Origin: Caedibacter taeniospiralis | GTDB lineage: Bacteria > Pseudomonadota > Gammaproteobacteria > Francisellales > Francisellaceae | Assembly (NCBI RefSeq): GCF_002803295.2 | Contig: NZ_PGGB02000007.1 | Coordinates: 9,365-41,364, forward strand | Length of the DNA: 32,000 bases | Reading direction: 5' to 3' | Shown: positions 708 through 32,000 of the stretch, piece after piece | Position numbering within the stretch: position 1 is the stretch's first letter | How the letters are laid out: each line of letters opens with the position of its first letter | Notes under the pieces: model-generated | The model's database searches: none | Seen by the model: the letters and a program-made list of their open reading frames with translations, nothing else | Told to the model about the DNA's origin: nothing | Translations under genes and position numbers: made by a program

Positions 708-774
708 CTAAGTGTTCAACCTCAAATTTAAACTAAGCGTCATTGTAACAAACCACCTCGTAAGCGAAAATGCT

Positions 775-877
775 GGCTTAGGCAAATAATTCGCCCAAGT
801 GTGCCAGTGTGAGTAATCAGTGTCACACTCACAGCGACAACTCACACTTAGTGATGGGCAGAAATGTAGTCATTGCC
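775..877. mobile_element. MITE-like palindromic element, copy 1 (103 bp), between the mlaA stop and the nhaP start
   Basis: GGCTTAGGCAAATAATTCGCCCAAG...GTGTGAGTAATCAGTGTCACACTCACA...CTCACACTTAGTGATGGGC...GTCATTGCC. It aligns along its whole length with 5041-5149 and 31265-31365. Flanks are AAAATGCT (767-774) and AAAATGGC (878-885), 6 of 8 identical. Internal stems include AGTGTGAG/CTCACACT. Confidence 0.8.
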
Positions 878-891
878 AAAATGGCACTGCC

Positions 892-1644
892 TTAATTCTC
901 TTGTCCATCAAGAATATCAAGAACCGCAGCATCACTATCAAAACCACCTTCTGGTACTTTCTTAGGTTTTACCTGTAAGGTTTTCTCCAGCTCATAATCA
1001 TAATTTTGCAAATACACATTACGTATGGCAACATACGGATCAATGGCACTATTCACCAATTTTTCATAGCCACCAAGATATTGAACGCCTTCATTCACCT
1101 TATAAATACCCCAAGCCCCCCAGATAACTGCTTCTGGAAGATGCCCAACATAATTCAATGGATTAAACACGCCATCTATCAAATCACCTGTTGCGGCAGA
1201 AAACGTATAGGGTCCCAAAATGGGCACAACAAAATAAGGCGAATAACGATAACCCCATTTTGCAAGCGTAAACCCAAAGTTTTGCGTTCTTCTGGGCAGT
1301 CCCATGTTTTTAGCCACATCAAACAAACCAAACACTCCAAAAACACTATTGGCTAGAAGTCTTGCGGTATCTCGCCAGAGATAGTCAAAATTCCACTGCA
1401 ATAAATCGTTGGCAACTCGCCCAGGTTCCAGAATGTTATTATAGGTGTTATTAACCCCTTGCTGCACCTGATCTGGCACCATATAATCGTAACCCTTAGC
1501 CACAGGGATAAGCGCATAATCATAAGTCACCTGATTAAATTTAAATATAACCCGATTGTACCCTTCCCACGGGTCTCTATCCTGCTGGGTTGCACAACCA
1601 CTTAGCAAAAACATTGCCCAAAAACCTATTGCCTTATATTTCAT
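892..1644 (-). CDS. mlaA: MlaA/VacJ family outer-membrane lipoprotein
   Basis: 250 aa. Lipobox LLSGC near the N-terminus, followed by DPWEGYNRVIFKFN, typical of MlaA/VacJ. ATG at 1644-1642. Confidence 0.85.
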   Translation of the reverse strand: MKYKAIGFWAMFLLSGCATQQDRDPWEGYNRVIFKFNQVTYDYALIPVAKGYDYMVPDQVQQGVNNTYNNILEPGRVANDLLQWNFDYLWRDTARLLANSVFGVFGLFDVAKNMGLPRRTQNFGFTLAKWGYRYSPYFVVPILGPYTFSAATGDLIDGVFNPLNYVGHLPEAVIWGAWGIYKVNEGVQYLGGYEKLVNSAIDPYVAIRNVYLQNYDYELEKTLQVKPKKVPEGGFDSDAAVLDILDGQEN

Positions 1645-1982: not shown

Positions 1983-3503
1983 ATGACACAACAACACCCT
2001 CTCTCATCAACGATGAAATGGCTTATTACTGTCACGGTGATGCTTGCTGCAATGATCGAGATTATTGATACCACCATCGTCAATGTTGCCTTACAGGATA
2101 TGGCTGGCTCTCTTGGTGCAAGTACGGAAGAGATATCATGGGTAGTAACTTCTTACATCGTATCTGCTGCCATTTGCATGCCATTGACAGGTTTCTTTGT
2201 CCGCACCATGGGTCGACGACGCTTGCTACTCATTAACATTGTTGGGTTTTTAATTTTTTCAATGCTCTGTGGCTTAGCAAGCTCTTTGAACGAAATGGTT
2301 TTCTTTAGAATTATGCAGGGAATTTTTGGCTCCTCTTTAGTCCCTCTGTCTCAATATGTGCTAAGAGATACCTTTCCTCCTAACGAACAAGTAAAAGCCA
2401 TGGCTGTTTGGGGAGTAGGCATTATGGCAGCACCTGTACTTGGTCCAACACTGGGTGGCTACATTACTGATTGGATGAACTGGCGTTGGATCTTTTATAT
2501 CAATATCCCAGTCTGTATTATTGCAATCATTATGGTCATCATGTTTATTAGTGAAACCAATCGTGAAAGACTCAATATAGATTGGATTGGTTTGGGACTG
2601 ATGACATTAACTATTGCCACCTTACAAATTTTTCTTGATCGAGGTAACAATGACGGCTGGCTGTCTTCACAGTTTATTGTTGCCATGCTGATGTTTTGGG
2701 TGGTTACAGGTCTCATCTTTATTTTCCGTGGCTGGTTTAATCCTAAAAATATTCTTAATTTACATTTATTCAAAGATAGAAACTATGCAGCCTCTTGCGT
2801 TCTTCTGGTCTTTTACACCACAGGGATCTTTGGATTAATGACGGTTCAACCTCTTATTATGCAAGGGATTATGAATTACTCTGCGGCTTTATCTGGTGAG
2901 CTTATGATGCCTCGGGGTATCGCCGCAGCAATTGCAATGATGACGATCGCACCACTTGCTAAGCGGATTGATCTACGAATTATTATTTTCTTAGGCATCG
3001 TGATTACCGCCTATGGCAATTATCTTTACGCTCAAATCCCACTGATGAGCGACACCTGGAACTTAATGTATCCTGGGATTATTCAAGGCATTGGCATGGG
3101 TTTTTTCTTTGTTCCTGTTTCAACCATGGCACTGCAAACCTTAAAACCACATGATCTTGCTGAGGGTAGCGGAATGTTTAGCTTTTTTAGAAACTTAGGG
3201 ACCTCAGTAGGCACATCGGTGATGATTACGGTATTAACTCAACAAGCACAAGTCGCCTGGCACAGCATGATTAAATACATTAATCCCAGCAATCCAAACT
3301 ACCAACTCTGGTTACAACACATTAACTGGCAAGCTCAGGATCCCACAACACTTAGCGTAATCGCCCAAAGCATCAGCACACAAGCCAATATCATCGCTTT
3401 TGATGATGTCGCTTATTTGTCTTATTTGTTACTCACCCTTTCCATTCCATTTATCTTTATGCTTAAAAAACCCACAAGTACAGGGCTTAGCATGGATCAT
3501 TAA
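1983..3503 (+). CDS. DHA2-family MFS multidrug efflux permease (EmrB/QacA-like, 14-TM type)
   Basis: 506 aa and highly hydrophobic. The N-terminal IDTTIVNVALQDMAGSLGAS motif and overall layout are typical of EmrB-type transporters. No emrA-like partner is adjacent. Confidence 0.85.
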   Translation: MTQQHPLSSTMKWLITVTVMLAAMIEIIDTTIVNVALQDMAGSLGASTEEISWVVTSYIVSAAICMPLTGFFVRTMGRRRLLLINIVGFLIFSMLCGLASSLNEMVFFRIMQGIFGSSLVPLSQYVLRDTFPPNEQVKAMAVWGVGIMAAPVLGPTLGGYITDWMNWRWIFYINIPVCIIAIIMVIMFISETNRERLNIDWIGLGLMTLTIATLQIFLDRGNNDGWLSSQFIVAMLMFWVVTGLIFIFRGWFNPKNILNLHLFKDRNYAASCVLLVFYTTGIFGLMTVQPLIMQGIMNYSAALSGELMMPRGIAAAIAMMTIAPLAKRIDLRIIIFLGIVITAYGNYLYAQIPLMSDTWNLMYPGIIQGIGMGFFFVPVSTMALQTLKPHDLAEGSGMFSFFRNLGTSVGTSVMITVLTQQAQVAWHSMIKYINPSNPNYQLWLQHINWQAQDPTTLSVIAQSISTQANIIAFDDVAYLSYLLLTLSIPFIFMLKKPTSTGLSMDH

Positions 3504-3552
3504 ATCAGTGTCACCTACGCTAAGACACTACCCCGTCGACCTGCGGTCGCCA

Positions 3553-3572
3553 CCCCTTCGCTTGCGAAGGGG
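3553..3572 (+). terminator. GC-rich hairpin 50 nt downstream of the MFS pump stop codon (possible intrinsic terminator)
   Basis: CCCCTTCG-CTTG-CGAAGGGG, a perfect 8-bp stem with a 4-nt loop. The U-tract is poor (AATTAAATCCATGTTTTT), hence the low confidence. Confidence 0.35.
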
Positions 3573-3670
3573 AATTAAATCCATGTTTTTGCCAGAGATT
3601 TTAATTGTTTCAGTCAGCTGCTTCCGCTTACAATAAAGCCACTGATTGAGATCTAACTGATGAAGTTAAT

Positions 3671-6487
3671 ATGCAGTTTGATGAATTTTGCCAAAGCTTT
3701 GAGTTGACACACTTAGATATAAAAGTTTCAGCAAAATTATTGAATACTTTTAACACCAGCTGCTTTTTTGCTCGTTTTATCCAACAACATCCCCAGCTTC
3801 TCAAGCATACCGATTGGTTTCTCATTGATGACATCAGTGTTTTGCAACAAGAAATTAAAGCTCTTTTTGCACAGAGCAAAAGTTATGATGAGCTTGCAAA
3901 GACTTTACGCAACTATCGCCAACAAGTGCATGCCAAACTTGTGTTCCAACAGCATCATAAGATTGCCAACTTTGAGACTATTGCCGAGACTATTTCTGCT
4001 ATAGCAAAGCATATTTTATTTTACGCACAACAATATTTATTAAAAAAACTAAGTGAAACTAAAACCCTCCATAAACTCCCGCAAGATCTCGGTATCATCA
4101 CCATGGGAAAGCTCGGTGGAAATGAGCTTAACTTCTCTTCTGATATTGACCTTGTGTTCATCCAGGTAAATAACGACCCATTGACAGACCACCTTGGTAA
4201 AACCTATAGCGCCATGCGTTTTTATACTGAGCTTGGTCAAAAGCTTATTGCCTTACTTAATGAAACGACAATCGATGGATTTGTTTATCGAGTTGATATG
4301 CGTTTGCGTCCCTTTGGTGAGGGCGCACCTTTAGTCATCGATATAGAAAGCTTTAAACATTATCTTATGAATCATGCGCGAGCTTGGGAGCGCTATGCTT
4401 ATATTAAAGGCGACATTTTACATCCATCTCATCAGGTTAAAGAGATATTAGATCACATGATCAAGCAGTTTGTTTATCGCCATTACCATGACTATCGCAT
4501 GCTGAATGCTATTCGTGAGATGAAACAAAAAATCTTATCCGAAATGAAACAGGTAAACTTAACAGACAACATAAAATTAGGTCGTGGTGGCATTCGTGAA
4601 ATCGAGTTTATCTGTCAATGCTATCAGTTGATTTATGGCGGTCAAAATATCACTTTGCAACATCGTAAGCTAAAACAAGCACTGCGTTCATTAACCCATG
4701 CTGAGGTTATTTCTGTCGATACTCAAAAATATCTCTATCAGCACTATGTTTTTTTGCGCAACGTTGAAAATGCCCTGCAAATGTTTGATGATCAACAAAC
4801 GCATCAGCTGCCAAGCAGCAAGCACACACAGAACGCCATCGCCTGCTTATGCGGTTTTGATGACTGGCAAATGCTTATCACACAAATCACCCAGACAAGG
4901 GAAAAAGTGGCAGGGCTTTTTGACAAACTCACCCGCTTTAACCTCCATAACGTTGAGCAAATGCAAGACTCAGCAATCTCTGCCACCTTGATGACGGACA
5001 ACACTCTCCCCGCCTGCGCTTATAATCATACGGAAATTAAGGCTTGTACAAATAATTCGCCCAAGCGTATCGGTGTGAGTAATCAGTGTCACACTCACAC
5101 TCACACTCACAACTCACACTTAGCAATTGGCGGAAATATAGTCACTGCCGAAATTAACAACTTCTTTGCTGAACATATCCTTGCTCAAGAAGTTCTACCC
5201 GCTATTGAAGACTTAATTAACCTGTGTGTAGAGCGCTATCCACAGCTTTTAACCAATCTACTAAAGCTGCTGCATAACTTGAGCAAACGACAAACTTATT
5301 TATTTTTGTTCCTTGAATATCGCTCACATCATCTGGATTTTTTGACCTTACTCAATCAAGGCGCACGAATCGTAGAAATACTAACGGAACACCCGTTTTT
5401 ACTTGAGCGCGCATTCATATACAAACACCATGACGAAGTCTATATCGATATTGCTTATCTTCGCAGCAAACTGTACAGACACCTCCAAGCTATTAACCTT
5501 GAGGATGTCGAGGCTTTCTTAGAATGTTTGCGTCGATTTAAGCTTGAACAGATATTTAACATTATCGTCAGTGAATCACAAGGGCACATATCCTTAATGG
5601 AAGCCAGTGATTTATTCAGTCATCTGGCAACCGTTTTAATTGAAATTGCCCTTGATGGAGCATGGCGTGAGATTTTTCGATATGTCGATATAACATCCGA
5701 TCTACAGCAAGCTTATCGAGACTCTCTAGCGGTCATTGCCTATGGCAAACTTGGCGGGCTTGAGCTCAGTGTTGCCTCTGACTTGGATCTGGTGTTTATT
5801 CATGATAAAACCCATACGGAATTATCCTCACGCTTTTTTGTGCGCGCTGTGCAAAAATTTGTCCATTTTATGCAAATTAAAACCTATCACGGCGCCCTGT
5901 ACGATATTGATTTACGCCTGCGTCCTGAGGGAGATAATGGTTTTATTGCCCCAGGTTTTGATCGCTATGAGGAATATCTTTATCACTCTGCCTGGACTTG
6001 GGAGCACCAGGCATTAACACGCGCACGCTTCATTTGTGGAGCCTCCCGTATTCAACAGAAATTTGATCAACTGCGTACTCAAGTTTTGTGTCAATCTCGT
6101 GCGCTTCCCGCGCTCAAAAAAGATATTCGTGAGATGCGCCAAAAAATGCGCACTCATCTACTTAAAGCTCCTTCGCATCTATTTGATTTAAAACAAAGCC
6201 CAGGTGCTATGGTGGATATTGAGTTTATTGCCCAGTTTTTTGCGCTTTATTATAGCCATAAAGTTCCTGCAATAGGTTACTACAGCGACAGTATTCGCAT
6301 TATCCAAACCATCGAATCTGCACAGTTACTTGATACTAAAACGGCAAACGTGCTGATTGATAACTATTGCTATTACCGTGATTTAGGGTTTAAATGCTAC
6401 CTTCGCAAACAAGAAGCCGTTGTTCCCTTAGATACTTGTAAACAGAGAATGTTAGAAGTACAGGAAATATGGAGCAATCTATTTTAG
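3671..6487 (+). CDS. glnE: Bifunctional glutamine synthetase adenylyltransferase/adenylyl-removing enzyme, carrying a 39-codon in-frame repeat insertion
   Basis: 938 aa with two nucleotidyltransferase modules: GKLGGNELNFSSDIDLVF at ~4100 and GKLGGLELSVASDLDLVF at ~5750. Each is followed by Y.VD.RLRP.G. This is the GlnE architecture. Confidence 0.9.
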   Translation: MQFDEFCQSFELTHLDIKVSAKLLNTFNTSCFFARFIQQHPQLLKHTDWFLIDDISVLQQEIKALFAQSKSYDELAKTLRNYRQQVHAKLVFQQHHKIANFETIAETISAIAKHILFYAQQYLLKKLSETKTLHKLPQDLGIITMGKLGGNELNFSSDIDLVFIQVNNDPLTDHLGKTYSAMRFYTELGQKLIALLNETTIDGFVYRVDMRLRPFGEGAPLVIDIESFKHYLMNHARAWERYAYIKGDILHPSHQVKEILDHMIKQFVYRHYHDYRMLNAIREMKQKILSEMKQVNLTDNIKLGRGGIREIEFICQCYQLIYGGQNITLQHRKLKQALRSLTHAEVISVDTQKYLYQHYVFLRNVENALQMFDDQQTHQLPSSKHTQNAIACLCGFDDWQMLITQITQTREKVAGLFDKLTRFNLHNVEQMQDSAISATLMTDNTLPACAYNHTEIKACTNNSPKRIGVSNQCHTHTHTHNSHLAIGGNIVTAEINNFFAEHILAQEVLPAIEDLINLCVERYPQLLTNLLKLLHNLSKRQTYLFLFLEYRSHHLDFLTLLNQGARIVEILTEHPFLLERAFIYKHHDEVYIDIAYLRSKLYRHLQAINLEDVEAFLECLRRFKLEQIFNIIVSESQGHISLMEASDLFSHLATVLIEIALDGAWREIFRYVDITSDLQQAYRDSLAVIAYGKLGGLELSVASDLDLVFIHDKTHTELSSRFFVRAVQKFVHFMQIKTYHGALYDIDLRLRPEGDNGFIAPGFDRYEEYLYHSAWTWEHQALTRARFICGASRIQQKFDQLRTQVLCQSRALPALKKDIREMRQKMRTHLLKAPSHLFDLKQSPGAMVDIEFIAQFFALYYSHKVPAIGYYSDSIRIIQTIESAQLLDTKTANVLIDNYCYYRDLGFKCYLRKQEAVVPLDTCKQRMLEVQEIWSNLF
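5041..5149. mobile_element. MITE-like palindromic element, copy 2 (109 bp), inside the glnE reading frame
   Basis: Same element as 775-877 and 31265-31365. It is flanked by a perfect 8-bp direct repeat GAAATTAA (5033-5040 and 5150-5157). It translates in the glnE frame as KACTNNSPKRIGVSNQCHTHTHTHNSHLAIGGNIVTAEI. Confidence 0.85.
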
Positions 6488-6529
6488 CGTAAGTTCAAAG
6501 CAAGTATTTTCAAGTGGTTCCAGGTCTTT

Positions 6530-6590
6530 ACTTCTCCCTTGATGGGAGAAGTCGCCAAAACGTGTTTTGGCGGATGAGGGAGAATTTTTT
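6530..6590 (+). terminator. Compound GC-rich stem-loops followed by a T-run, downstream of glnE
   Basis: ACTTCTCCC-TTGAT-GGGAGAAGT (6530-6552), then CGCCAAAAC-GT-GTTTTGGCG (6553-6572), then GATGAGGGAGAATTTTTT. TCTCCC (6533-6538) can also pair with GGGAGA (6578-6583) directly before the T6 run. Confidence 0.5.
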
Positions 6591-6668
6591 ACCTCAAAAA
6601 TAAACTCGCATTTTACCCTTTATAAATCCATTTAAATCTATCAGAATATTGACATTCAAACCTTCTGT

Positions 6669-17649: not shown

Positions 17650-18123
17650 TTATTTACGCCATAACCTTGCATCGACTAAAAAGGGAAGCTGTTCAACGCT
17701 CTTCACAACCTGACTAAATTTCTCATGTTCAGGATTTAGTAAGTAATTCCATTCCCTGGGGACAACCGCACTTGGCACTGCAAGCACCATGCTTTGACAG
17801 GATCTAAGCCAGTCATCACCCAAAGCAGCGGTTTCAGGTGGAGCAGGCTGATCTTGCCAGCATTTGGGTAGATGTTCTCGATCAACATACTGAATTTCTG
17901 ATTGTGGCAATTTAACTTGCAATAGTGTGTAATTTTGCAGTAAGGAATAATCTTCTAGATGGACGAAAATTTCTAAAATAGCAAGTGATTCAGAGCTTGC
18001 TACATATACACATGGCATGCCTTTACTATTCCATCTGCCTCCATATAGTTTTGCACCATCGCCAGTAAAAGCATTACTCAGCCATTTGGTTTTAACTAAC
18101 CTATACGCATAAACAGTACTCAC
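17650..18123 (-). CDS. RES-domain toxin (NAD+-targeting RES family)
   Basis: 157 aa. It has YGGRWNSKGMPCVYVASSESLAILE (R...E...S signature). The GTG start overlaps the upstream antitoxin stop (GTGA). Confidence 0.85.
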   Translation of the reverse strand: MSTVYAYRLVKTKWLSNAFTGDGAKLYGGRWNSKGMPCVYVASSESLAILEIFVHLEDYSLLQNYTLLQVKLPQSEIQYVDREHLPKCWQDQPAPPETAALGDDWLRSCQSMVLAVPSAVVPREWNYLLNPEHEKFSQVVKSVEQLPFLVDARLWRK

Positions 18124-18548
18124 GCAAAAACACCATGCTCAAGGCGCCCAATTAAATCTAAAACAGCTTCGGTTTCCGCTGATGTCCTTAACATCTCCAC
18201 AGGGCGTTTTCCGCCTAAGCCAGCAACAGAGGTTTGCAGCCAACTTTTTGCTTTTTCATTATGACCTTCAAATAAGTCCAGCGTCGCTTTGTATACTTCA
18301 GCGTAGCGATATAACCTATCACTTTCTGCTTCTGTGAAGAACCCAGATTTAAATCTTCTATTAAGAGATGCTGATGGAATGGTGGTGATTTCTGCCAGTT
18401 GTTTCTTCTCAAGACCAGAAATGACCGCAAGCTTGCTAAAAACATCGCAGCTAAAGCCATTGTGTATCGCTTGATATAAATCCTGACCACGGGAAGGCAT
18501 GCCGACAAATGCCCAAAAATCGCCTTGCTTTACTGATGTTGCTATCAT
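18120..18548 (-). CDS. Xre-like antitoxin with a DUF2384 (ParS/MbcA-type) C-terminal domain
   Basis: ATG at 18548 preceded by GGAG (tggagtttataATG). It has LAEITTIPSASLNRR...LTEAESDRLYRYAEVYKATLDLFEG...AKSWL...GLGGKRPVEMLRTSAETEAVLDLIGRLEHGVFA, which is typical of DUF2384. The track start at 18656 would run into the MNT gene. Confidence 0.8.
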   Translation of the reverse strand: MIATSVKQGDFWAFVGMPSRGQDLYQAIHNGFSCDVFSKLAVISGLEKKQLAEITTIPSASLNRRFKSGFFTEAESDRLYRYAEVYKATLDLFEGHNEKAKSWLQTSVAGLGGKRPVEMLRTSAETEAVLDLIGRLEHGVFA

Positions 18549-18561
18549 TATAAACTCCACA

Positions 18562-18594
18562 ATCATATGATATATCAAAATAATATCATATGAT
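18562..18594. promoter_or_regulatory. Two copies of the 10-bp palindrome ATCATATGAT, 23 bp centre to centre; candidate operator of the Xre/RES cassette
   Basis: ATCATATGAT occurs at 18562-18571 and 18585-18594, starting 14 nt upstream of the antitoxin ATG. Confidence 0.5.
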
Positions 18595-18609
18595 TTTATA
18601 AATACCAAC

Positions 18610-18936
18610 TTAGCACTTGCTTTGATTCCAATAAAAAAGCTGACCACACTGATCAATATGCTCTAAAAGCGCCAGATTACTAATCGTATGATAGTTACAT
18701 AAATCGATTAAATAAGGGGTGTTTAACGAATCCAATTCTTGAGAGACTCTATCCAGTATTTCTTGATTGATATTTTGTCCTTTTAACACCAGATCAATAT
18801 CTGATCCTGCTCTTTCTTTATTCATTGCACGTGATCCGTAGATAATTACTTGCTCTACTTCAGGAAACTGGGTAAAGACATTAGCAAAAATATTTATCAG
18901 GCTCTGCGCCAGACCAAACTTTACTGGTTCTGTCAT
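18610..18936 (-). CDS. Minimal nucleotidyltransferase (MNT, HI0073-like) antitoxin
   Basis: 108 aa. It has IYGSRAMNKERAGSDIDLVL (the GS-x10-DxD NTase motif) and ...PYLIDLCNY...LLEHIDQCGQLFY. ATGA overlap with the upstream HEPN gene. Confidence 0.85.
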   Translation of the reverse strand: MTEPVKFGLAQSLINIFANVFTQFPEVEQVIIYGSRAMNKERAGSDIDLVLKGQNINQEILDRVSQELDSLNTPYLIDLCNYHTISNLALLEHIDQCGQLFYWNQSKC

Positions 18937-19343
18937 AACTTTAAACTCATCGTTTGCGCCAATTGCTCAAAACAAAGGAGATAAATATCATGAACTTTAG
19001 TGAATTCTTGCTGTAATAAATTTATATCATAAGTATGTACAGTTCGATTGCGACTTTCTATCATATCCATCCATATCTGCCCTTCTTTAATTAAGCCAAG
19101 ATTAAATGCCAGTCGAGTTGCACTTCGTGAACCAGTAATATTCTGATGACCTTCAAATTCCAAAAAATCTTTAAGTACTTTCCAAGCCAGCTCATGTGTG
19201 AACTCAAAGCGCTGAAGCACCCCTTCTTTAACTATATCTGGAGCGCTATCATCATAATCTTGTATTGCTTGGCGTAACTGCGCTAACGCTTTTCGATAAT
19301 TAGAAAAACGCTGTTGCCAACGTATATTTTCTTTATAACTCAT
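18933..19343 (-). CDS. HEPN-domain protein, HI0074-family nucleotidyltransferase substrate-binding protein (toxin)
   Basis: It has QRFEFTHELAWKVLKDFLEFEG and ESRNRTVHTYD (the Rx4-6H HEPN motif). The ATG at 19343 overlaps the eamA TGA by 1 nt (TGATG); the track start at 19346 is a TTG. Confidence 0.85.
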   Translation of the reverse strand: MSYKENIRWQQRFSNYRKALAQLRQAIQDYDDSAPDIVKEGVLQRFEFTHELAWKVLKDFLEFEGHQNITGSRSATRLAFNLGLIKEGQIWMDMIESRNRTVHTYDINLLQQEFTKVHDIYLLCFEQLAQTMSLKL

Positions 19344-20242
19344 CAAACTCTCCCACTTAGTATTGAAACTTTTCTTCGCTTAACGTAACGCAAAATAGGC
19401 TCAATCGCAATTGATGATAGAATCAATACACATGCAAAAATCATATTTATGCTGATATGATCTCCCATAATGATGACACCAAATAGACTCCCAAATAATG
19501 GCACCAAATAATTAGATAATGAGCAAAATCCTGCCCCCGCACGCTTGATTAAACTGACATATAGCACATAAACCAGACCTGAGCAGAATACCCCAAGCGA
19601 CAATGAAGCAAGAAATGGAGATATTGAAAAGTGAATATTTGATAGCGAACCGTTGCTTGAGTTAATAACGCACATGACAATACTGCCCACAATAAACGCA
19701 TCGCGTGATAGTACAAAAGAATCCTCCTGCGGCAAACTACGAATCACAATAAGGGCTAAGGCAAATGACAAAGCTCCCATCAAAATGGCTATTTGTGGCA
19801 TGTATGACATGGATAATCCGTTGCGTAAATCTGGAAGAAATAAAACGATAAGACCTGCAAATCCCACAAGTACACTAAGAAATTTAACACCTGTTGCACG
19901 CTCAACTCCCGTTAAAAGCATCAGAACAATCGTGAAAAATGGAATAGTTCCCATTAAAATCGATGCCATACTCCCTGAAACAAATTGCTGCCCCCACATT
20001 ATCAAAACAAACGGGATAACAACCTCAAGCAGTCCAATGATAATTACTTTTAACCAGCTCAGGAGATCTCTTTTTGCATATTTTCTTCTGGTTATAAGAC
20101 AAAATATAATCAAGAAAACTGCGGCATAGAAGGTTCTAAGAAAAGATAACTGCTCAGGTGTGTATGTAGACAAAGATAAATCAATCAGAATAAATTGCCC
20201 GCCCCAAATCAGTCCGATAATGAGTAATAGCAGGTAGTTCAT
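19343..20242 (-). CDS. EamA/DMT-superfamily transporter
   Basis: 299 aa with ~10 TM segments and a duplicated EamA-like layout. It starts only 15 nt downstream of the greA stop. Confidence 0.8.
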   Translation of the reverse strand: MNYLLLLIIGLIWGGQFILIDLSLSTYTPEQLSFLRTFYAAVFLIIFCLITRRKYAKRDLLSWLKVIIIGLLEVVIPFVLIMWGQQFVSGSMASILMGTIPFFTIVLMLLTGVERATGVKFLSVLVGFAGLIVLFLPDLRNGLSMSYMPQIAILMGALSFALALIVIRSLPQEDSFVLSRDAFIVGSIVMCVINSSNGSLSNIHFSISPFLASLSLGVFCSGLVYVLYVSLIKRAGAGFCSLSNYLVPLFGSLFGVIIMGDHISINMIFACVLILSSIAIEPILRYVKRRKVSILSGRV

Positions 20243-20737: not shown

Positions 20738-20853
20738 TATTCACCTTCTGGTCTATTTTATATTCTTGCTAAATGGCGTTGATCACATTTCTGCCCACAA
20801 AAGCATACTGAATACGCGCCAGCGTTTATTGGCTCTGACTATTTTTCTGCCCT

Positions 20854-20923
20854 CTGTCATCCTGCGCTAGGGGCGAAATATTTTTCGTCCCTGGCTGGAT
20901 TCCCGCCTTCGCGGGAATGACAG
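20854..20923. repeat. Composite GC-rich structured element with two hairpins enclosed by CTGTCAT/ATGACAG; it includes ATTCCC-N8-GGGAAT
   Basis: GGGGCGAAA-TA-TTTTTCGTCCC (20870-20891) and ATTCCCGC-CTTC-GCGGGAAT (20899-20918). The outer inverted repeat is CTGTCAT (20854-20860) with ATGACAG (20917-20923). Confidence 0.5.
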
Positions 20924-23984: not shown

Positions 23985-24103
23985 AGAATTTTGGGGTTAT
24001 CTATAGCAACTCCAAGTCTTCTGAAAAATCACTCAAAGTAACAAAAGTGTAAATATTCAGACCCTCCACCTATTGAATGCGCCCCACGCAAGATCATTTT
24101 TTT

Positions 24104-25654: not shown

Positions 25655-27844
25655 TCAATTATTTGGCAGGCTGAAGTAGGGATTAGGGTTGCCTGTAGAG
25701 TTAAATTGGATAGTATTTGCTGAATTATCACCAAATTGCAACGATTGATAATTATTGTATTGGCAGTTACCACCCATTTGTGAGACGCATTGCAAGGCAA
25801 AATCCCAGGTAATCTGATCGTGTCCATCGACGTCATGCGCTTGAGATGCGAGGTTAAATACGCCCAGATATCCATCGGGAAAGGCAATAGACTGATAGGT
25901 GCTGTATTGATACGCTCCGCTATGCGAATGGACAAAGGCATTGGAGTCAACGGTCATGGGATAGCCACAACCGCCACCACTTTGACAGAGTCCTGAATCA
26001 AGGGCTGCAATCCATGGGGAAGATGACCATCCTCCAAAGCCTTGTTGATTAAGCGTGAAATCATTATCACTGCCCTTGAAGCTGATCTCAAAATATTTGA
26101 CATATTGTGGCGAACCAACGGGTGAGTATCCATAGTGTTGATTGTAGTCATAGGGTTGTAACTGGCTGGTCATGCCGTTGTAAGTCATGTAGTATGACAG
26201 AGCGGTATCTTGTGCAGCCCTTAAATTTAAGTCGAACGAATCACATGAAGCCTTGAGCGTGCCGTTGCCATATTGTCCTGTAAAAGGATTACTGACTACC
26301 CCCTGCCAAGTAAAGACATTACATTTTTGCGTCCATGGATATGCGTTACAAGTCGTGGCTCCATTTACGCATAAATTGTCGGTTTGTGCTGGAGGCATAT
26401 TAGCTTGTACCTTGGCATATTGTGGCTGATAGTTAGCAGCATAGGCATAAGAGTATTGTGGCAAACCAGTGTCTGACCAATCGCTTGGGTAGCTTGCCGT
26501 AGCATTAAAATCATCACTGATAAGATAAGACGAAGTAACATCGAAAATACCAGGAGCCCCTGTTAGGTTATTGTTTGAATCTCTGGATCCCATGATAAGA
26601 TTCTCAAAATATTGATTAATGACCGCCTGCTGGTTGGCAAAAGAACCAGTCGCCCCTTCAATGGGCGAGACCAAATCCTCAAAACCTGCGACATTGGCTT
26701 GCAGATAAGCCGCTGTAAGAAGGATGTTATAGGTTTGCTGGATTGAAACCAAAGAGCTCATATAAATATTCATCAGGCTCTCATTGTAGCCATTAATAAA
26801 TTGAACAGGGTCTGTGCCCATGCCGTAATTACTGGCAACAAATTGCGCTTTCATTTGTTCATTTAATGAATTGACAAATGTGTAATAAAAGCCATCTTTT
26901 GAATCTGTGCTGGTTAAGTCACGAATATTATCGGCTAGACTTGCCAAATAGCTGTTTGTCAGCAAGGCTTGCAGTTGAGCCTGTGCCTCTGTATTCGTAC
27001 TTAAATCAGACAAGCTATGAATATTTACTGTGGCGTTAGTAAACTGATCCCACTGGGTTTGAATCCCAGTAGCTAGCATCTTTGCCTCTACCGCGTAATT
27101 TGTCGATTGATCAGCAAGAACCTGATTGTAAAGTGCTGCAAATCCACCAAGTAATTCATTGAGATCGTTTTGAATGGTGGCAAGATCAGCCAGCGCCTCG
27201 TTCATCTCACTATTGAGCTGATTTAAGTCGCTTTCAATTGCTGCACTAGGGGAGCTGGGATTAATGCCAAACTTCTTAGCTATTTCAGAAGTTGCCCAAT
27301 CCATAGTCTTGCCCACCGCCCAATCCACAAGACCATCAACGACAGGACCGTTTGGTGGAGTTGTTGTCTTTTCAGCTGACAAAGGTGACAATTTACTTAA
27401 CTGTTTAAGATCCGTAGCTTGCAATCGCCCATCTAAGGAAAAACTCACGCTAAATTGATCCTTGGCCGATTGAGGTTGAGCTAACTGACCATAGATTTCA
27501 AGCCCTGCTGTGGTTGTTCCAGAAACAGTAATCATATCGTCATTAAATGCAATATGATCAGGGATGATAGTCGCTTGTGAATTGCGACGAGCCACTTCCA
27601 GGTTTTTGCGCCACAATAACGTTTTGCCATTTTTTGCATCTACAGCGACGACAAATCCTGCGGTTTTCCCTTTGGGCTTGATTCCGCCAAATGCCTCGTG
27701 CAGTGTGCCTGTAAAATAGCCTGCAAGATAAATTGTATGGTCTTTGATTGCCATCGCTGTTACGTGAATGGCGCGACTATTATCAAGCGCTAAGCTCACC
27801 TGCCAGTCAATGGCAGAATGATATATCAAAACTCTCAGGCTCAA
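25655..27844 (-). CDS. Orphan 729-codon ORF, probably 5'-truncated, with beta-propeller-like, helical Q/N-rich and Cys/aromatic-rich parts
   Basis: This is a long open frame in AT-rich DNA. The first possible start is a TTG (27844) with no SD, an in-frame stop lies 5 codons upstream, and the first ATG is at 27754. There is no signal peptide. All 8 Cys fall in the last ~250 aa. I recognise no family. Confidence 0.55.
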   Translation of the reverse strand: MSLRVLIYHSAIDWQVSLALDNSRAIHVTAMAIKDHTIYLAGYFTGTLHEAFGGIKPKGKTAGFVVAVDAKNGKTLLWRKNLEVARRNSQATIIPDHIAFNDDMITVSGTTTAGLEIYGQLAQPQSAKDQFSVSFSLDGRLQATDLKQLSKLSPLSAEKTTTPPNGPVVDGLVDWAVGKTMDWATSEIAKKFGINPSSPSAAIESDLNQLNSEMNEALADLATIQNDLNELLGGFAALYNQVLADQSTNYAVEAKMLATGIQTQWDQFTNATVNIHSLSDLSTNTEAQAQLQALLTNSYLASLADNIRDLTSTDSKDGFYYTFVNSLNEQMKAQFVASNYGMGTDPVQFINGYNESLMNIYMSSLVSIQQTYNILLTAAYLQANVAGFEDLVSPIEGATGSFANQQAVINQYFENLIMGSRDSNNNLTGAPGIFDVTSSYLISDDFNATASYPSDWSDTGLPQYSYAYAANYQPQYAKVQANMPPAQTDNLCVNGATTCNAYPWTQKCNVFTWQGVVSNPFTGQYGNGTLKASCDSFDLNLRAAQDTALSYYMTYNGMTSQLQPYDYNQHYGYSPVGSPQYVKYFEISFKGSDNDFTLNQQGFGGWSSSPWIAALDSGLCQSGGGCGYPMTVDSNAFVHSHSGAYQYSTYQSIAFPDGYLGVFNLASQAHDVDGHDQITWDFALQCVSQMGGNCQYNNYQSLQFGDNSANTIQFNSTGNPNPYFSLPNN

Positions 27845-28040: not shown

Positions 28041-28135
28041 GCGATTGCTCCTTTTTGTCGAGTAGACATTTCTGTTTCTCCTATTTATATTTGTTTATAT
28101 TCAATACAATGTGAAGACGCACAATGCCCCTCACA

Positions 28136-28168
28136 GAACCGTACTTGTAGATTTCCCACATACGGCTC
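28136..28168 (-). ncRNA. Group II intron catalytic domain V
   Basis: GAGCCGUAUGUGGGAAAUCUACAAGUACGGUUC. It has the AGC triad, a lower helix GAGCCGUAU/GUACGGUUC identical to the classic yeast ai5-gamma DV as I recall it, a 2-nt AA bulge and a GAAA-type loop. Confidence 0.85.
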
Positions 28169-28179
28169 TTCAACTTAAC

Positions 28180-29514
28180 TCACAGCGCTACCAACGTGTA
28201 AAATATGTGATTGATTCGTGGTCGCGGTAACGGATGGCGCTCTACATATTTATTAAAGTCCCACCAGTTCATTTTCCGCTTCTGGCTTCTTCGATTTAAC
28301 CACTTCAGCGTCTGTCTCATGGCTATCGAATAATACTTCGCTATCGAGGGGTAGTTTCCACTCACTCCGTAATATTCAAAATGCCCTCTTAGCTTCGCTT
28401 TCAGTATTTTCCACCACTCTTTTGTCGGGAGTACATTCCTAATCGATTTCAGCCACAAGTTCAAATCTTTGCACTTGGCTCGAAACTTCTTAGCGCTCGT
28501 TTTCCGACCCAGTTTGAAATACCCCTTTCTTGTCTTATCACAAAAATGGGTAAATCCTAGAAAATCAAACGTATTCGCCTTGCGTCCAGCATTCAAAGCA
28601 TTCAGCTTCTCAAACCGTCCAAAGCTTATGTTCCGACTCTTCTCTGGATGAAGCTGTAGTTCATGCTTGTTAAATCTATTCGCCAATGCCCGCTCAATCT
28701 TGCGGGCATCTTCCTGATACTGTATCAAGCACACAAAGTCATCTGCATACCTCACCAGCCTGCAAAATCCTTCAACGTGCTGCTTTACCGTATCTTCAAA
28801 CCATTTATCTAATACATAATGCAAAAATATATTCGCCAACATCGGACTTAATATACTCCCTTGTGGCGTACCTTTCTCCGTGTCGATCAATACCCCTTTA
28901 TCTATGTACCCCGCCCTTAAAAAGCAGTCTATCAGATGTAGCAAACTCGTATCCTTCACCCGTATCTTCACAAAGTCCTTCAGTTTCTCGTGCGATACGT
29001 TATCGAAGAACCCCTTTATATCCGCTTCCACCAAATGGTTCACAGGTTGGGTCATGATCGCCTTATCGACTTCATTTAACGCCTGATGAGTATTCCTTCC
29101 TGGTCTAAACCCATACGAGCATTCCAGAAAGTCCTGTTCATATATGCTTTGCAGAATCAGCATTATACCGCTCTCAACAATCTTGTTCTCAATTGCAGAG
29201 ATACCTAACGGGCGGCTTTCACCATTTCCTTTAGGGATATATACCCTTCTACTTGGCATTGGCTTAAATGTCTTGCGCTTTAATCGCATGACCAGATTCT
29301 CTATCTTATCCGCTACGTCCACGCCATATTCTTGCCAACTTACTTTGTCTATTCCTACCGCCTTGTTTCTATCAAGTCCATAGTAGCAATAGCTGAGAAA
29401 CTCCGCGTCAAGTAAATGAGCCAGGCTCGTAAACTCAAAACTTCGATTCCCTCGCGCGCACTCTGCTATAGAAGACAACTTCAACAATGTTTTATTCAAC
29501 TCTGCGTTTGACAT
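28180..29514 (-). CDS. Group II intron reverse transcriptase/maturase (no endonuclease domain)
   Basis: RT blocks are present, including RPLGISAIENKIV, GTPQGSILSPMLANIFL and RYADDFV (YADD), plus an X/maturase region FLGF...RGHFEYYGVSGN. It ends without an HNH/En domain. The ATG is at 29514; the track start at 29517 is a GTG. Confidence 0.9.
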   Translation of the reverse strand: MSNAELNKTLLKLSSIAECARGNRSFEFTSLAHLLDAEFLSYCYYGLDRNKAVGIDKVSWQEYGVDVADKIENLVMRLKRKTFKPMPSRRVYIPKGNGESRPLGISAIENKIVESGIMLILQSIYEQDFLECSYGFRPGRNTHQALNEVDKAIMTQPVNHLVEADIKGFFDNVSHEKLKDFVKIRVKDTSLLHLIDCFLRAGYIDKGVLIDTEKGTPQGSILSPMLANIFLHYVLDKWFEDTVKQHVEGFCRLVRYADDFVCLIQYQEDARKIERALANRFNKHELQLHPEKSRNISFGRFEKLNALNAGRKANTFDFLGFTHFCDKTRKGYFKLGRKTSAKKFRAKCKDLNLWLKSIRNVLPTKEWWKILKAKLRGHFEYYGVSGNYPSIAKYYSIAMRQTLKWLNRRSQKRKMNWWDFNKYVERHPLPRPRINHIFYTLVAL

Positions 29515-30200
29515 CACTCAAACTATCCTCTTGCGTTAAATTGCCAGCCCCTTCGAGTGGATTAGCCTCTGACCCTTCTCAGAGCTTCAATCTATCCTCG
29601 ATAGGCATTACCCTACCTACTCCTCTACTACGAACCAGTCCGACTACCTTGCTAAACCATCACCTCGTTTCTTCAACTTGCATGACAGCATTCAGAAATA
29701 GCAAGGTTCTCCCAAGTTCCAAAACAATCAGTTCATCTACCCGCTACGGACTCAGACCCCGACACCTCCGCGCATACTCGCCTGTTTACTTTGGGTTGTG
29801 CCAAACTTTTTTAAAAAAAAAAAAAAAACACATGCTCTAGTTTCGTATACAGCAGTTCTGATTTCAGGCAAATGAAAACCCTGATCAGGTGTGACGTTGA
29901 TTTATTACGGGGCTCAATACCTTCACTTGCGTTGTGGCTGATAGACCGCCCTTGCTACAGCTTCATACGCTGCGAGCCATGGACCTATGTGTAGTTCGGT
30001 TCCAGACCGGTGGCTAACCTTTATCTGGGCTGGATTGTCCAGCTTGATTGCCTTAGCTTTGCTTGGCGCACTCATAATTTTCTCCTGGGTTTGATTGATA
30101 ATTAACGTTTAGTTGTGTGGATGATAATGCCTTCAAAACGATCACATAAGAGCAAAATTTGGTCAATTGTGATAAAAATTACCATTGCTTATTTTTAACC

Positions 30201-31184
30201 TTAAACAATTATTGTTCCATTGCTCACATCCTGTCGCCAACAGCTGAGCATGAATTTTTCTACGTCTAAATAGCGCCCTTGTGATATGACAAAGGTATCC
30301 AAATTCCGCTCTATTTCCCAATTTTTGAGGACTTGTACCAGGGGGACTGTCTGCATATCGGTCAAACTAACAAGTCCGTTATCTAACATGGCAAACCCTA
30401 AATGCTGCCTTATAAGCTCACTCACCGATAAGTGCATTGACACCCGTGCTATCAAATTCAGCTGTACCGTTTTATGTTGATTGTCTTGTGAAAAGGTAAT
30501 CATCCCAGTTTCAAAAGGAGTCGCAATATAATCTAAATGGCGCAGATCTTCTGGCTGTTCAATCGGGTGACCTAAGGTGTCTAAAAAGCTTTGACTGCAA
30601 TATAGACCAAACTTTCCCTGCAAAGTAATCACTACTTTCCATTTGTCTTGATCAATTAAGTGGAGATTTTTTCTAGGCATCATTAATAAATCAAAGCTTT
30701 GTGCCAGACCCCTGATATGTGAACCAAAGCGTTCAAACATCGCAGGTGTGATCATTGTAATGTCAAAAATAATGTTGGGGAACTGAGTACGCAACGGAGC
30801 GAGCATGTACTTCACAAAGTAATGGTAAGACAAAGGAAACACGCCCATTTTGTAGGTGATTTTATCTCCAAAATTGTATAGGGTATCGACGTCTATATCC
30901 AGTTGTTCAATTTTAGGATAAATGGTTGCATATAGGCGTTGCCCAAACTCTGTTAATACAATTCCTTTGATACCACTGTCGTCTGAAATGATTTTTTGAT
31001 TAAAGGCAGACTCTAGCGTACGAATATACTCCCTGGCTGTTTTGATATTTACATTGAGCTTTTCCGCTGCACTCTTACGCGTTCCAAGTTTAACAAGTTC
31101 AGAAAAGTAAACCAGCTCGCGAGAGTAGCGAAAAATATCAATTTTGGATGCGCTCATTGCCAAATTTTCCCTGTTGTGAATCAT
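30201..31184 (-). CDS. LysR-family transcriptional regulator
   Basis: It has an N-terminal wHTH (LVYFSELVKLGTRKSAAEKLNVNIKTAREYIRTLESAFNQKI...LTEFGQRLY) and a ~200-aa substrate-binding-like C-terminal part. An alternative ATG lies at 31157. Confidence 0.8.
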   Translation of the reverse strand: MIHNRENLAMSASKIDIFRYSRELVYFSELVKLGTRKSAAEKLNVNIKTAREYIRTLESAFNQKIISDDSGIKGIVLTEFGQRLYATIYPKIEQLDIDVDTLYNFGDKITYKMGVFPLSYHYFVKYMLAPLRTQFPNIIFDITMITPAMFERFGSHIRGLAQSFDLLMMPRKNLHLIDQDKWKVVITLQGKFGLYCSQSFLDTLGHPIEQPEDLRHLDYIATPFETGMITFSQDNQHKTVQLNLIARVSMHLSVSELIRQHLGFAMLDNGLVSLTDMQTVPLVQVLKNWEIERNLDTFVISQGRYLDVEKFMLSCWRQDVSNGTIIV

Positions 31185-31264
31185 AACAGTGAGAGATATA
31201 GCTCAAAGCTTTAAGATTTACAAGTCAAGTCAAAGCATAATAGGGCGCATTTCAGAGAAATCTT

Positions 31265-31365
31265 GGCTTGTGCAAATAATTCGCCCAAGCGTGTCGGTGT
31301 GAGTAATCAGTGTCCGTCACACTGACAACTCACAATTAGTGATGGGCGTCAATATAGTCATCACC
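31265..31365. mobile_element. MITE-like palindromic element, copy 3 (101 bp), upstream of the lysR start
   Basis: Same element as copies 1 and 2. It is flanked by a perfect 8-bp direct repeat GAAATCTT (31257-31264 and 31366-31373). Confidence 0.85.
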
Positions 31366-31537
31366 GAAATCTTCCATTACAAAATGGTCGTTTATTAGCA
31401 AAAATTTGGTAAATGTTATAAGAAGCTCTTTTATCAAAATGGCGCACAGATGCACTGGCAATTTCCTCCCAAGATCGCTACCATGTCCCAAAGCTTCTAT
31501 TTTACGTGGCATCACCTATGGCTAAGAAAATTTATAA

Positions 31538-32000
31538 AGGACGGATGAGTTATTATATGAATGCCGGGTGAAACTGCCTAATATCGAAATTGTGCATCTG
31601 CTAAATTACTACTTCAAAATCTGGTTTAACACGCGCTTAGGTGTGCAATATCAATCGTTTTTAAATAATCTGGTCGAAGGCAAGGTAGAGAAGTTCAGTG
31701 AGCAATTAAATACTTATCTCACCGAAGCCTTAAGTGTCAGAGACACGGGTTACACCGCCGAGAAGTTTTATCACGGATTAGTTTTGGGTTTGATTGCCTC
31801 ATTAAGAGCGACGCATCTTATCCACTCCAATCGTGAATCAGGGGATGGTTATCCCGATGTGCTTATTTATCCTTTGGCAAATAATCAAAAGCACGATTTA
31901 GGCATTGTGATGGAATTTAAGCATGCCAGGGAAGATGGCAGCGAAAACCTGGAGAAACTCGCCAAGCAAGCGTTAAGCCAGATTGAGCAAAAAAATTATG
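31538..32000 (+). pseudogene. 3' fragment of an AAA-ATPase-like/PD-(D/E)XK (DUF1703-type) gene; open to the window end, no start codon
   Basis: Absent from the ORF track. The frame is open from 31538, after a TAA at 31535. My translation is ...VKLPNIEIVHLLNYYFKIWF...FYHGLVLGLIASLRATHLIHSNRESGDGYPDVLIYPL...LGIVMEFKHAR...ALSQIEQKNY. The pattern (PN.EV, FYHG..LGL, SNRESG.G..D, hhhE.K) matches the C-terminal nuclease domain of this family. The expected upstream ~350 aa are missing. Confidence 0.55.

Follow-up and report, generated by a model that had tools for sequence, protein, structure and literature searches.

Results and Discussion

A repeated element in the C. taeniospiralis chromosome

The DNA analyzed here (the window) is a stretch of 32,000 bp from the chromosome of Caedibacter taeniospiralis, a bacterium that produces R bodies, lives as an obligate endosymbiont in Paramecium tetraurelia and has a genome of 1.3 Mb (PMC5773718). 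The genes of the window are gammaproteobacterial housekeeping genes (mlaA, an MFS transporter gene, glnE, purL, eno, ispD, greA, clpB, pyrF and others). An element of 101-109 bp occurs three times among them, and the copies can be aligned end to end:

775..877, plus strand: copy 1 of the element, 103 bp (nhmmer E 8e-28)
5041..5149, plus strand: copy 2, 109 bp, in frame in the interdomain linker of glnE, with an open translation
31265..31365, plus strand: copy 3, 101 bp (nhmmer E 7e-27)

Pairwise identity of the copies was 84-86%, and a repeat search of the window returned them as its top two direct-repeat families. The positions and common orientation given for them in a preliminary description of this DNA were thus confirmed. 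The count of three in 32 kb given there holds for well-preserved copies, but degenerate relatives on the minus strand, described below, are also present in the window. The cores CAAATAATTCGCCCAAG and GTGTGAGTAATCAGTGTC were each found exactly 3 times in the window when up to 3 mismatches were allowed, against 0.25 and 0.01 chance matches, respectively, expected from shuffled sequences. Similarity among the copies ends exactly at the element borders, and the flanks are unrelated.

Copy 1 is found 3' of mlaA (892-1644, minus strand; MlaA Pfam match), at 15 bp from its stop codon. Copy 3 is intergenic, with a LysR-family regulator gene (minus strand, 30201-31184) on one side and a PDDEXK_9 gene fragment (plus strand, from 31568) diverging from it on the other. 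The LysR-family protein has 100% identity to an NCBI protein with the name Caedibacter taeniospiralis. The genomic contexts (after mlaA, in glnE, upstream of the LysR gene) are mutually unrelated, as are those of other family members, one of which follows a dot/icm cluster while another has an ABC ATPase gene and a DUF4143 gene as neighbors. All copies except copy 2 lie in intergenic DNA, and copy 1, like those in the related contigs L001 and L002 (copy L002a), is found just past the 3' end of a gene. The orthologous site of copy 1 in contigs L006 and L011 carries an identical copy, and orthologues of copy 3 are present in L004, L007, L012 and L013.

The earlier statement that the element encodes no transposase was upheld, as no copy contains an ORF of at least 60 aa and no transposase domain was detected in the window ORFs scanned. 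The element has a single open frame among six, which encodes no more than a low-complexity peptide of about 36 aa.

Target-site duplications

Each of the three copies is bracketed by direct repeats of 8 bp, the presumed target-site duplications (TSDs):

767..774, plus strand: left TSD of copy 1, AAAATGCT, 6/8 match to AAAATGGC at 878-885
878..885, plus strand: right TSD of copy 1, AAAATGGC, paired with 767..774
5033..5040, plus strand: left TSD of copy 2, GAAATTAA, 8/8 match to 5150-5157, read in glnE as Glu-Ile and the first two bases of a Lys codon
5150..5157, plus strand: right TSD of copy 2, GAAATTAA, the native Glu-Ile-Asn codons of glnE, where homologues have (E/K)-I-(N/D) and then F-F
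31257..31264, plus strand: left TSD of copy 3, GAAATCTT, 8/8 match to 31366-31373
31366..31373, plus strand: right TSD of copy 3, GAAATCTT, paired with 31257..31264

These octamers are those noted in the preliminary description and differ between copies, as it had claimed. Among random position pairs with the same spacing in this window, a match of 8/8 occurred at a frequency of 5.5e-5 and one of at least 6/8 at 6.5e-3.

A search of a metagenome collection with the strict core pattern returned seven contigs representing five distinct loci. One of these loci (L001/L005) was new, being located 3' of a dotG/dotH-like type IVB secretion cluster, and its copy served as the refuting test for the proposal of transposition with target duplication. 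This copy differs from the others in its flanks and in the direct repeat that brackets it (CGTACTTT / CGTACCTTT), supporting transposition and indicating that the flanking repeats are TSDs and not the result of segmental duplication.

The three window copies are each preceded by (G/A)AAAT, and the duplications run 3 nt past GAAAT, with differing bases (TAA, CTT). It had been suggested that these five bases might be part of the element, leaving a TSD of only 3 bp; since GAAAT is missing from the L001 copy, this idea was rejected. The other suggestion, a target preference, can be retained in part: the duplication is of 8 bp, and (G/A)AAAT reflects at most a preference for AT-rich targets. No TSD was recognizable for the most divergent copies (L002b, L007b and the 61-bp mini version).

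Structure of the element

The termini are imperfect inverted repeats composed of GGC, an A/T-rich stretch and CGCCCA. In each of six copies a gapped alignment of the two ends matched at 15-17 of 24 nt (p 0.0003-0.008 relative to shuffles), so that the weak inverted ends reported earlier are statistically real but imperfect. The left 28 nt form a hairpin of their own, and in the center an 8-bp stem that does not vary (GTGTGAGT/ACTCACAC) encloses a variable CACACT tract. This stem and a GCCC/GGGC pairing were found in all copies, in agreement with the internal self-complementarity described previously.

A TATAGT/TGTAGT motif is common to the three window copies. In the right end of copy 3 (31329-31358, plus strand) a weak sigma-70-like match, CTCACA-18-TATAGT (9/12), faces the PDDEXK_9 gene and may be regarded as a putative promoter.

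Insertion of the element in glnE

The gene that carries copy 2, and the part of the copy that varies in length, are as follows:

3671..6487, plus strand: glnE, encoding glutamine synthetase adenylyltransferase of 938 aa, host gene of copy 2 (Pfam GlnE twice, and GlnD_UR_UTase)
5090..5107, plus strand: (CACACT)3 hexamer tract in copy 2, encoding a His-Thr run, with a length that varies between lineages

Copy 2 is read through in frame, which the preliminary description had not noted, the element plus one TSD making up 117 bp or 39 codons, and the one open frame among its six is the frame used in glnE. The insert corresponds to aa 457-495, between the Pfam domain matches at 282-420 and 559-800, and hence occupies an interdomain linker position. 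Excision of 5041-5157 restores an intact GlnE ORF of 899 aa, compared with 891-910 aa in the twelve closest homologues outside the lineage, all of which have a gap in place of the element. One octamer, GAAATTAA(C), remains after excision, and the E-I-N that it encodes aligns with the conserved (E/K)-I-(N/D) that precedes F-F in the homologues. Judged against these homologues, which are 47-61% identical (the nearest named GlnE is that of Cysteiniphilum, with 60% identity), the reconstructed sequence probably represents the empty site. The insertion is also a trivial explanation of the 39 aa by which the annotated GlnE exceeds its relatives.

L003 shares this insertion, as does L010, a contig of the sister lineage (GlnE 93% identical, DNA about 96%), in which the octamers are identical too. 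The elements of the glnE orthologues in the window and L010 are 94.8% identical, against 84-90% for paralogous copies. Since the insertion is shared with the sister lineage and orthologues are closer to each other than paralogues, the spread of the element must predate the split of the lineages, indicating that the family is old. All five substitutions between the orthologous glnE elements change an amino acid, which would fit an unconstrained passenger peptide, although five are too few for significance. The CACACT tract is shorter by 6 nt in L003 and by 12 nt in L010, both of which keep the frame; in copy 3, which is non-coding, the difference is 8 nt.

A profile of the element-encoded peptide scored nothing among 5.8 billion proteins, and phmmer against 1.84 billion representatives returned two low-complexity matches only. 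There is therefore no evidence for other in-frame insertions. The survival of the glnE copy may be explained by its landing in the sole open frame of the element and in a flexible interdomain linker, to which it adds 39 residues.

Further, degenerate and variant copies

Five of the seven contigs (L003, L004, L006, L007 and, by way of L011 and L012, the MAG GCA_031972495.1) represent the same loci as the window with 97-100% identity (98.6-100% for the MAG contigs), and each of the three sites is filled in them. Members of the family beyond the window loci were identified in L001, L002 (L002a and L002b), L007 (L007b) and L012 (L012b). The variant L002a matches the family over its left 50 nt and at the right terminus, with a different interior between them. 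A profile search recovered divergent or truncated copies from three more places: L002, where smpB and recA are the neighbors, L007, and the part of L012 just past the right end of the window. The degenerate relatives within the window are all on the minus strand:

20831-20891, minus strand: 61-bp mini relative, in which 18 nt separate GGGACGAAAAATATTTCGCCC, similar to the left end, from GGGCAGAAAAATAGTCAGAGCC, similar to the right end; no TSD discernible
20775-20796, minus strand: solo right-end fragment GGGCAGAAATGTGATCAACGCC, 83% complementary to 855-878
about 24047-24079, minus strand: right-part remnant of a divergent copy; L007 (2531-3296) retains the rest together with a DUF4160/DUF2442 cassette, both lost from the window by deletion

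The ends of the mini relative are inverted repeats (p 0.0003). A perfect hairpin, ATTCCCGCGAAGGCGGGAAT, adjoins it at 20899-20918, and 15 nt of this hairpin (GCTGGATTCCCGCCT) recur in the variant interior of L002a (L002, about 4384-4440). The shared sequence may represent a second small repeat family or a product of recombination.

The family was restricted to these contigs in the collections searched. The strict core pattern had 0 matches in 185,579 species genomes and 0 in viral contigs, and blastn of the element against plasmids and phages produced short chance matches only. A looser 17-mer core gave 9 matches in the species genomes, which were discarded as chance matches limited to the seed and belonging to unrelated taxa. 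No copy or terminus-like sequence was found on the Caedibacter plasmid pKAP298.

Search for a parent insertion sequence

The window, pKAP298 and related contigs amounting to about 70 kb contained no autonomous element whose ends match those of the family, and fuzzy matching of both termini against all Caedibacter-related loci returned the known copies only. Two mobile elements of pKAP298 were considered as parents and rejected: the ends of IS4502 (IS256-like) are unrelated to those of the element, and a Tn3-family transposon also has unlike ends.

Insertion sequences that produce 8-bp duplications belong to the IS6/IS26, ISL3, IS1595, IS256 and IS66 families. The element likewise has an 8-bp TSD and ends that start with GG, and the ends of ISL3 and IS1595/IS1016 may resemble its own. 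The left end, GGCTTGTGCAAATAAT, is loosely similar to the IS26 inverted repeat GGCACTGTTGCAAATAGT, the sequence of which was verified, though not significantly so (p 0.04-0.09), and the right end has no similarity. Assignment to IS6/IS26 would be based on the 8-bp TSD and on a left end that resembles the family repeat (GGCACTGTTGCAAA-like) at this nonsignificant level, the right end having no counterpart.

The PDDEXK_9 nuclease gene fragment (178 aa) downstream of copy 3 extends from 31568 to 32000 of the window (plus strand) and on into L012 (7511-8047). An inverted, internally deleted copy of the element (L012 7464-7529) is located at its 3' end and supplies the last codons of the gene. The possibility that copy 3, this gene and the inverted degenerate copy form an autonomous unit was rejected, because copy 3 is bracketed by a TSD belonging to it alone, the outer flanks are unlike each other and no TSD surrounds the whole unit, and because the gene is a single-copy fragment with no homologue on pKAP298.

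Origin and spread of the element

The members of the family are small and dispersed, with sharp borders, unrelated flanks, copy-specific 8-bp duplications, inverted termini that are preserved in a variant whose interior differs, and no coding capacity, and one of them is inserted in glnE. This is the make-up of a MITE, and we consider it very probable that the element represents a family of non-autonomous DNA transposons of about 100 bp in the chromosome of C. taeniospiralis and its close sister lineage. Three other origins were weighed against this one.

Duplication of a local segment, or gene conversion, might account for the presence of three of the about five known well-preserved copies within 32 kb and in the same orientation. 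However, similarity stops at the element ends, flanks and contexts are unrelated and each copy has its own 8-bp duplication, which makes the likelihood of such an origin negligible. The hairpins at the left end and center, and the (G/A)AAAT that precedes all three window copies, would also suit a REP/BIME-like or IS200/IS605-type hairpin element (PATE), spread by a Y1 (HUH) transposase or RAYT beside a fixed (G/A)AAAT. Elements of the REP and PATE type make no target duplication, and REPs measure 20-40 nt. Here, on the other hand, the duplications are of 8 bp and copy-specific, with that of L001 (CGTACTTT) lacking GAAAT, the element is about 100 bp long with inverted termini, and no RAYT or TnpA gene was seen in the window or the loci examined. 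Spread of this type is therefore very unlikely.

The copies could also be structured non-coding RNA genes or cis-regulatory RNA motifs (a terminator, a stabilizer or an sRNA), with the structure under selection and the dispersal secondary. Folding of the RNA had been recommended as a check in the preliminary description, and on either strand the energies obtained were below those of shuffled sequences, most copies having z values of -3 to -4. In addition, the copies mentioned above (copy 1, L001 and L002a) follow gene 3' ends, and MITE-derived sRNAs are known in Coxiella (PMC5896051). Against this, consensus folding found 0 compensatory pairs on the plus strand and only one on the minus strand, with an unfavorable covariation term. 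There was no Rfam match on either strand even at E<=1 and no intrinsic-terminator pattern; one copy is inside a coding sequence, and an RNA gene does not explain the TSDs. We regard an RNA origin as improbable, and a function of the RNA could at most be secondary to the MITE origin.

The MITE is likely to have been moved by a transposase-mediated cut-and-join reaction. A transposase supplied in trans would bind both ends of the element and cut AT-rich targets, often (G/A)AAAT, with a stagger of 8 bp; the element would then be joined in, and repair would yield the 8-bp duplications. The transposase partner may have been lost through genome reduction.

The orthologous sites recovered were all filled, or the contigs ended before the site (the mlaA and LysR loci and homologues). 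As no strain has an empty site for any copy, the evidence for mobility consists of the TSDs and the glnE reconstruction. The difference between L007 and the window at 24079 was considered as an empty site and rejected, being a deletion that took part of a divergent copy and not a clean excision. The family has the appearance of a fossil, given the divergence of paralogues, the presence of the glnE copy in a lineage that has diverged by about 5%, the truncated copies, the small number of intact ones and the filling of all checked sites in all strains seen. Thus it is old and probably now inactive.

Comparison with known elements

The family shares with other bacterial MITEs, such as the Correia elements of Neisseria, the enterobacterial ERIC/IRU and the pneumococcal RUP, a size in the range of about 100-150 bp, the lack of transposase coding, inverted termini, self-complementarity and dispersed copies with TSDs that are mostly intergenic and near gene ends (PMC10969869). 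It differs from them in its very low copy number and in that no parent IS was found. The TSD of Correia and RUP elements is TA, whereas that of the Caedibacter family is of 8 bp, variable and AT-rich.

By description, the closest analogue of the family is QMITE2 of Coxiella burnetii. Both are small elements of intracellular gammaproteobacteria with terminal inverted repeats and copy-specific direct repeats (7-11 nt in QMITE2), located mainly 3' of ORFs or in intergenic regions, conserved and linked between strains, and present in full-size and truncated forms (PMC5896051). QMITE2 is 150-190 bp long and has about 50 copies, contains a GTAG REP targeted by IS1111 and gives rise to an sRNA (PMC5896051), none of which was seen in the Caedibacter family.

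The Rickettsia palindromic elements (RPEs) are selfish palindromic sequences of about 100-150 bp in an obligate intracellular host, inserted in frame in genes and translated as extra residues. They are by description the closest analogues of the glnE copy, which is in frame in a housekeeping gene with the ORF kept (PMC10969869). In-frame insertion is the rule for RPEs, whereas the Caedibacter family, in a gammaproteobacterial host, has only one intragenic copy out of about 5-10 known. Since this is the only intragenic copy and the peptide was found in no other protein, the family is not RPE-like in the strict sense. It is unlikely that the element is an RPE-like "translatable" selfish element, in which the single open frame is kept by selection for surviving insertion in genes and the glnE copy is domesticated as a functional linker whose slippage-prone His-Thr tract tunes GlnE activity between lineages. 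A weaker variant of this reading would have the MITE still mobilized by an unrecognized class of transposase encoded elsewhere in the Caedibacter genome.

The preliminary description had called the family undescribed, and within the reach of the searches this was upheld, as the Rfam, species-genome, plasmid, phage and viral collections yielded no match. No paper containing the core sequences was found, and two Caedibacter genome papers mention neither MITEs nor chromosomal IS elements. We conclude that this is a real, apparently undescribed, low-copy MITE family, a known kind of element and not new biology, and one that leaves unchanged the thinking on how MITEs work. Chromosomal repeats of this type do not figure in the published descriptions of the reduced (1.3 Mb) genome of this obligate endosymbiont, to which a MITE family is now added. 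The glnE copy provides a clean example outside Rickettsia of a MITE tolerated in frame in a housekeeping enzyme and kept across lineage divergence, with a His-Thr tract of variable length. The MITE copies and the polymorphic hexamer tract can serve as strain-typing markers, and the copies help to trace rearrangements, one of them marking a deletion end-point.

Other strain and lineage differences in the window

The deletion in question is at 24079/24080 of the window. In L007 a segment of about 740 bp (2555-3296) carries a DUF4160/DUF2442-like pair of small genes beside a divergent copy of the MITE; the deletion has removed this pair and most of the MITE from the window, and L014 (4775-4932) keeps a different remnant. 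Such a pattern suggests a hot spot for deletions.

A complete group II intron (28057-30038, minus strand; Rfam RF02005 and RF00029) with an RVT_1 ORF (28180-29517) is present in the window. It is absent from L007 and L012, which are otherwise 97-99.8% identical and have 234 bp in place of 2249 bp, and hence the intron is polymorphic for presence and absence between strains.

Two segments are shared by the window, the MAG and L010 and missing from L006: 1758-1809 (52 bp, within a region of 26-nt inverted repeats) and 3493-3663 (171 bp, between the MFS gene and glnE). The latter contains the inverted repeats AATCAGTG/CACTGATT and a CCCCTTCGCTTGCGAAGGGG hairpin, and in L006, which lacks it, the stop of the MFS gene overlaps the start of glnE. 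Between glnE and purL the sister lineage carries purT (396 aa; L010 3594-4790), whereas the window has only 181 bp (6488-6668), indicating gene loss or gain between close lineages. Where the window has an ORF of 729 aa without a Pfam match (25655-27844, minus strand), four short ORFs are called in the sister lineage (L014/L015), which suggests a possible pseudogenization there.

Two adjacent toxin-antitoxin-like pairs are located at 17650-19346 (minus strand), one with a RES domain protein and an Xre/MbcA-like antitoxin and the other with a Polbeta nucleotidyltransferase and an NTase substrate-binding (HEPN-like) protein. At the left end of the window, about 700 bp (90-775) separate copy 1 from a Na+/H+ exchanger gene situated just off the window. 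This interval has no called gene in the MAG annotation, and neither of its two ORFs (21-353 and 103-486) matched Pfam. At 150-189 the sequences of L011 and the window differ by a replacement of 40 versus 57 bp.
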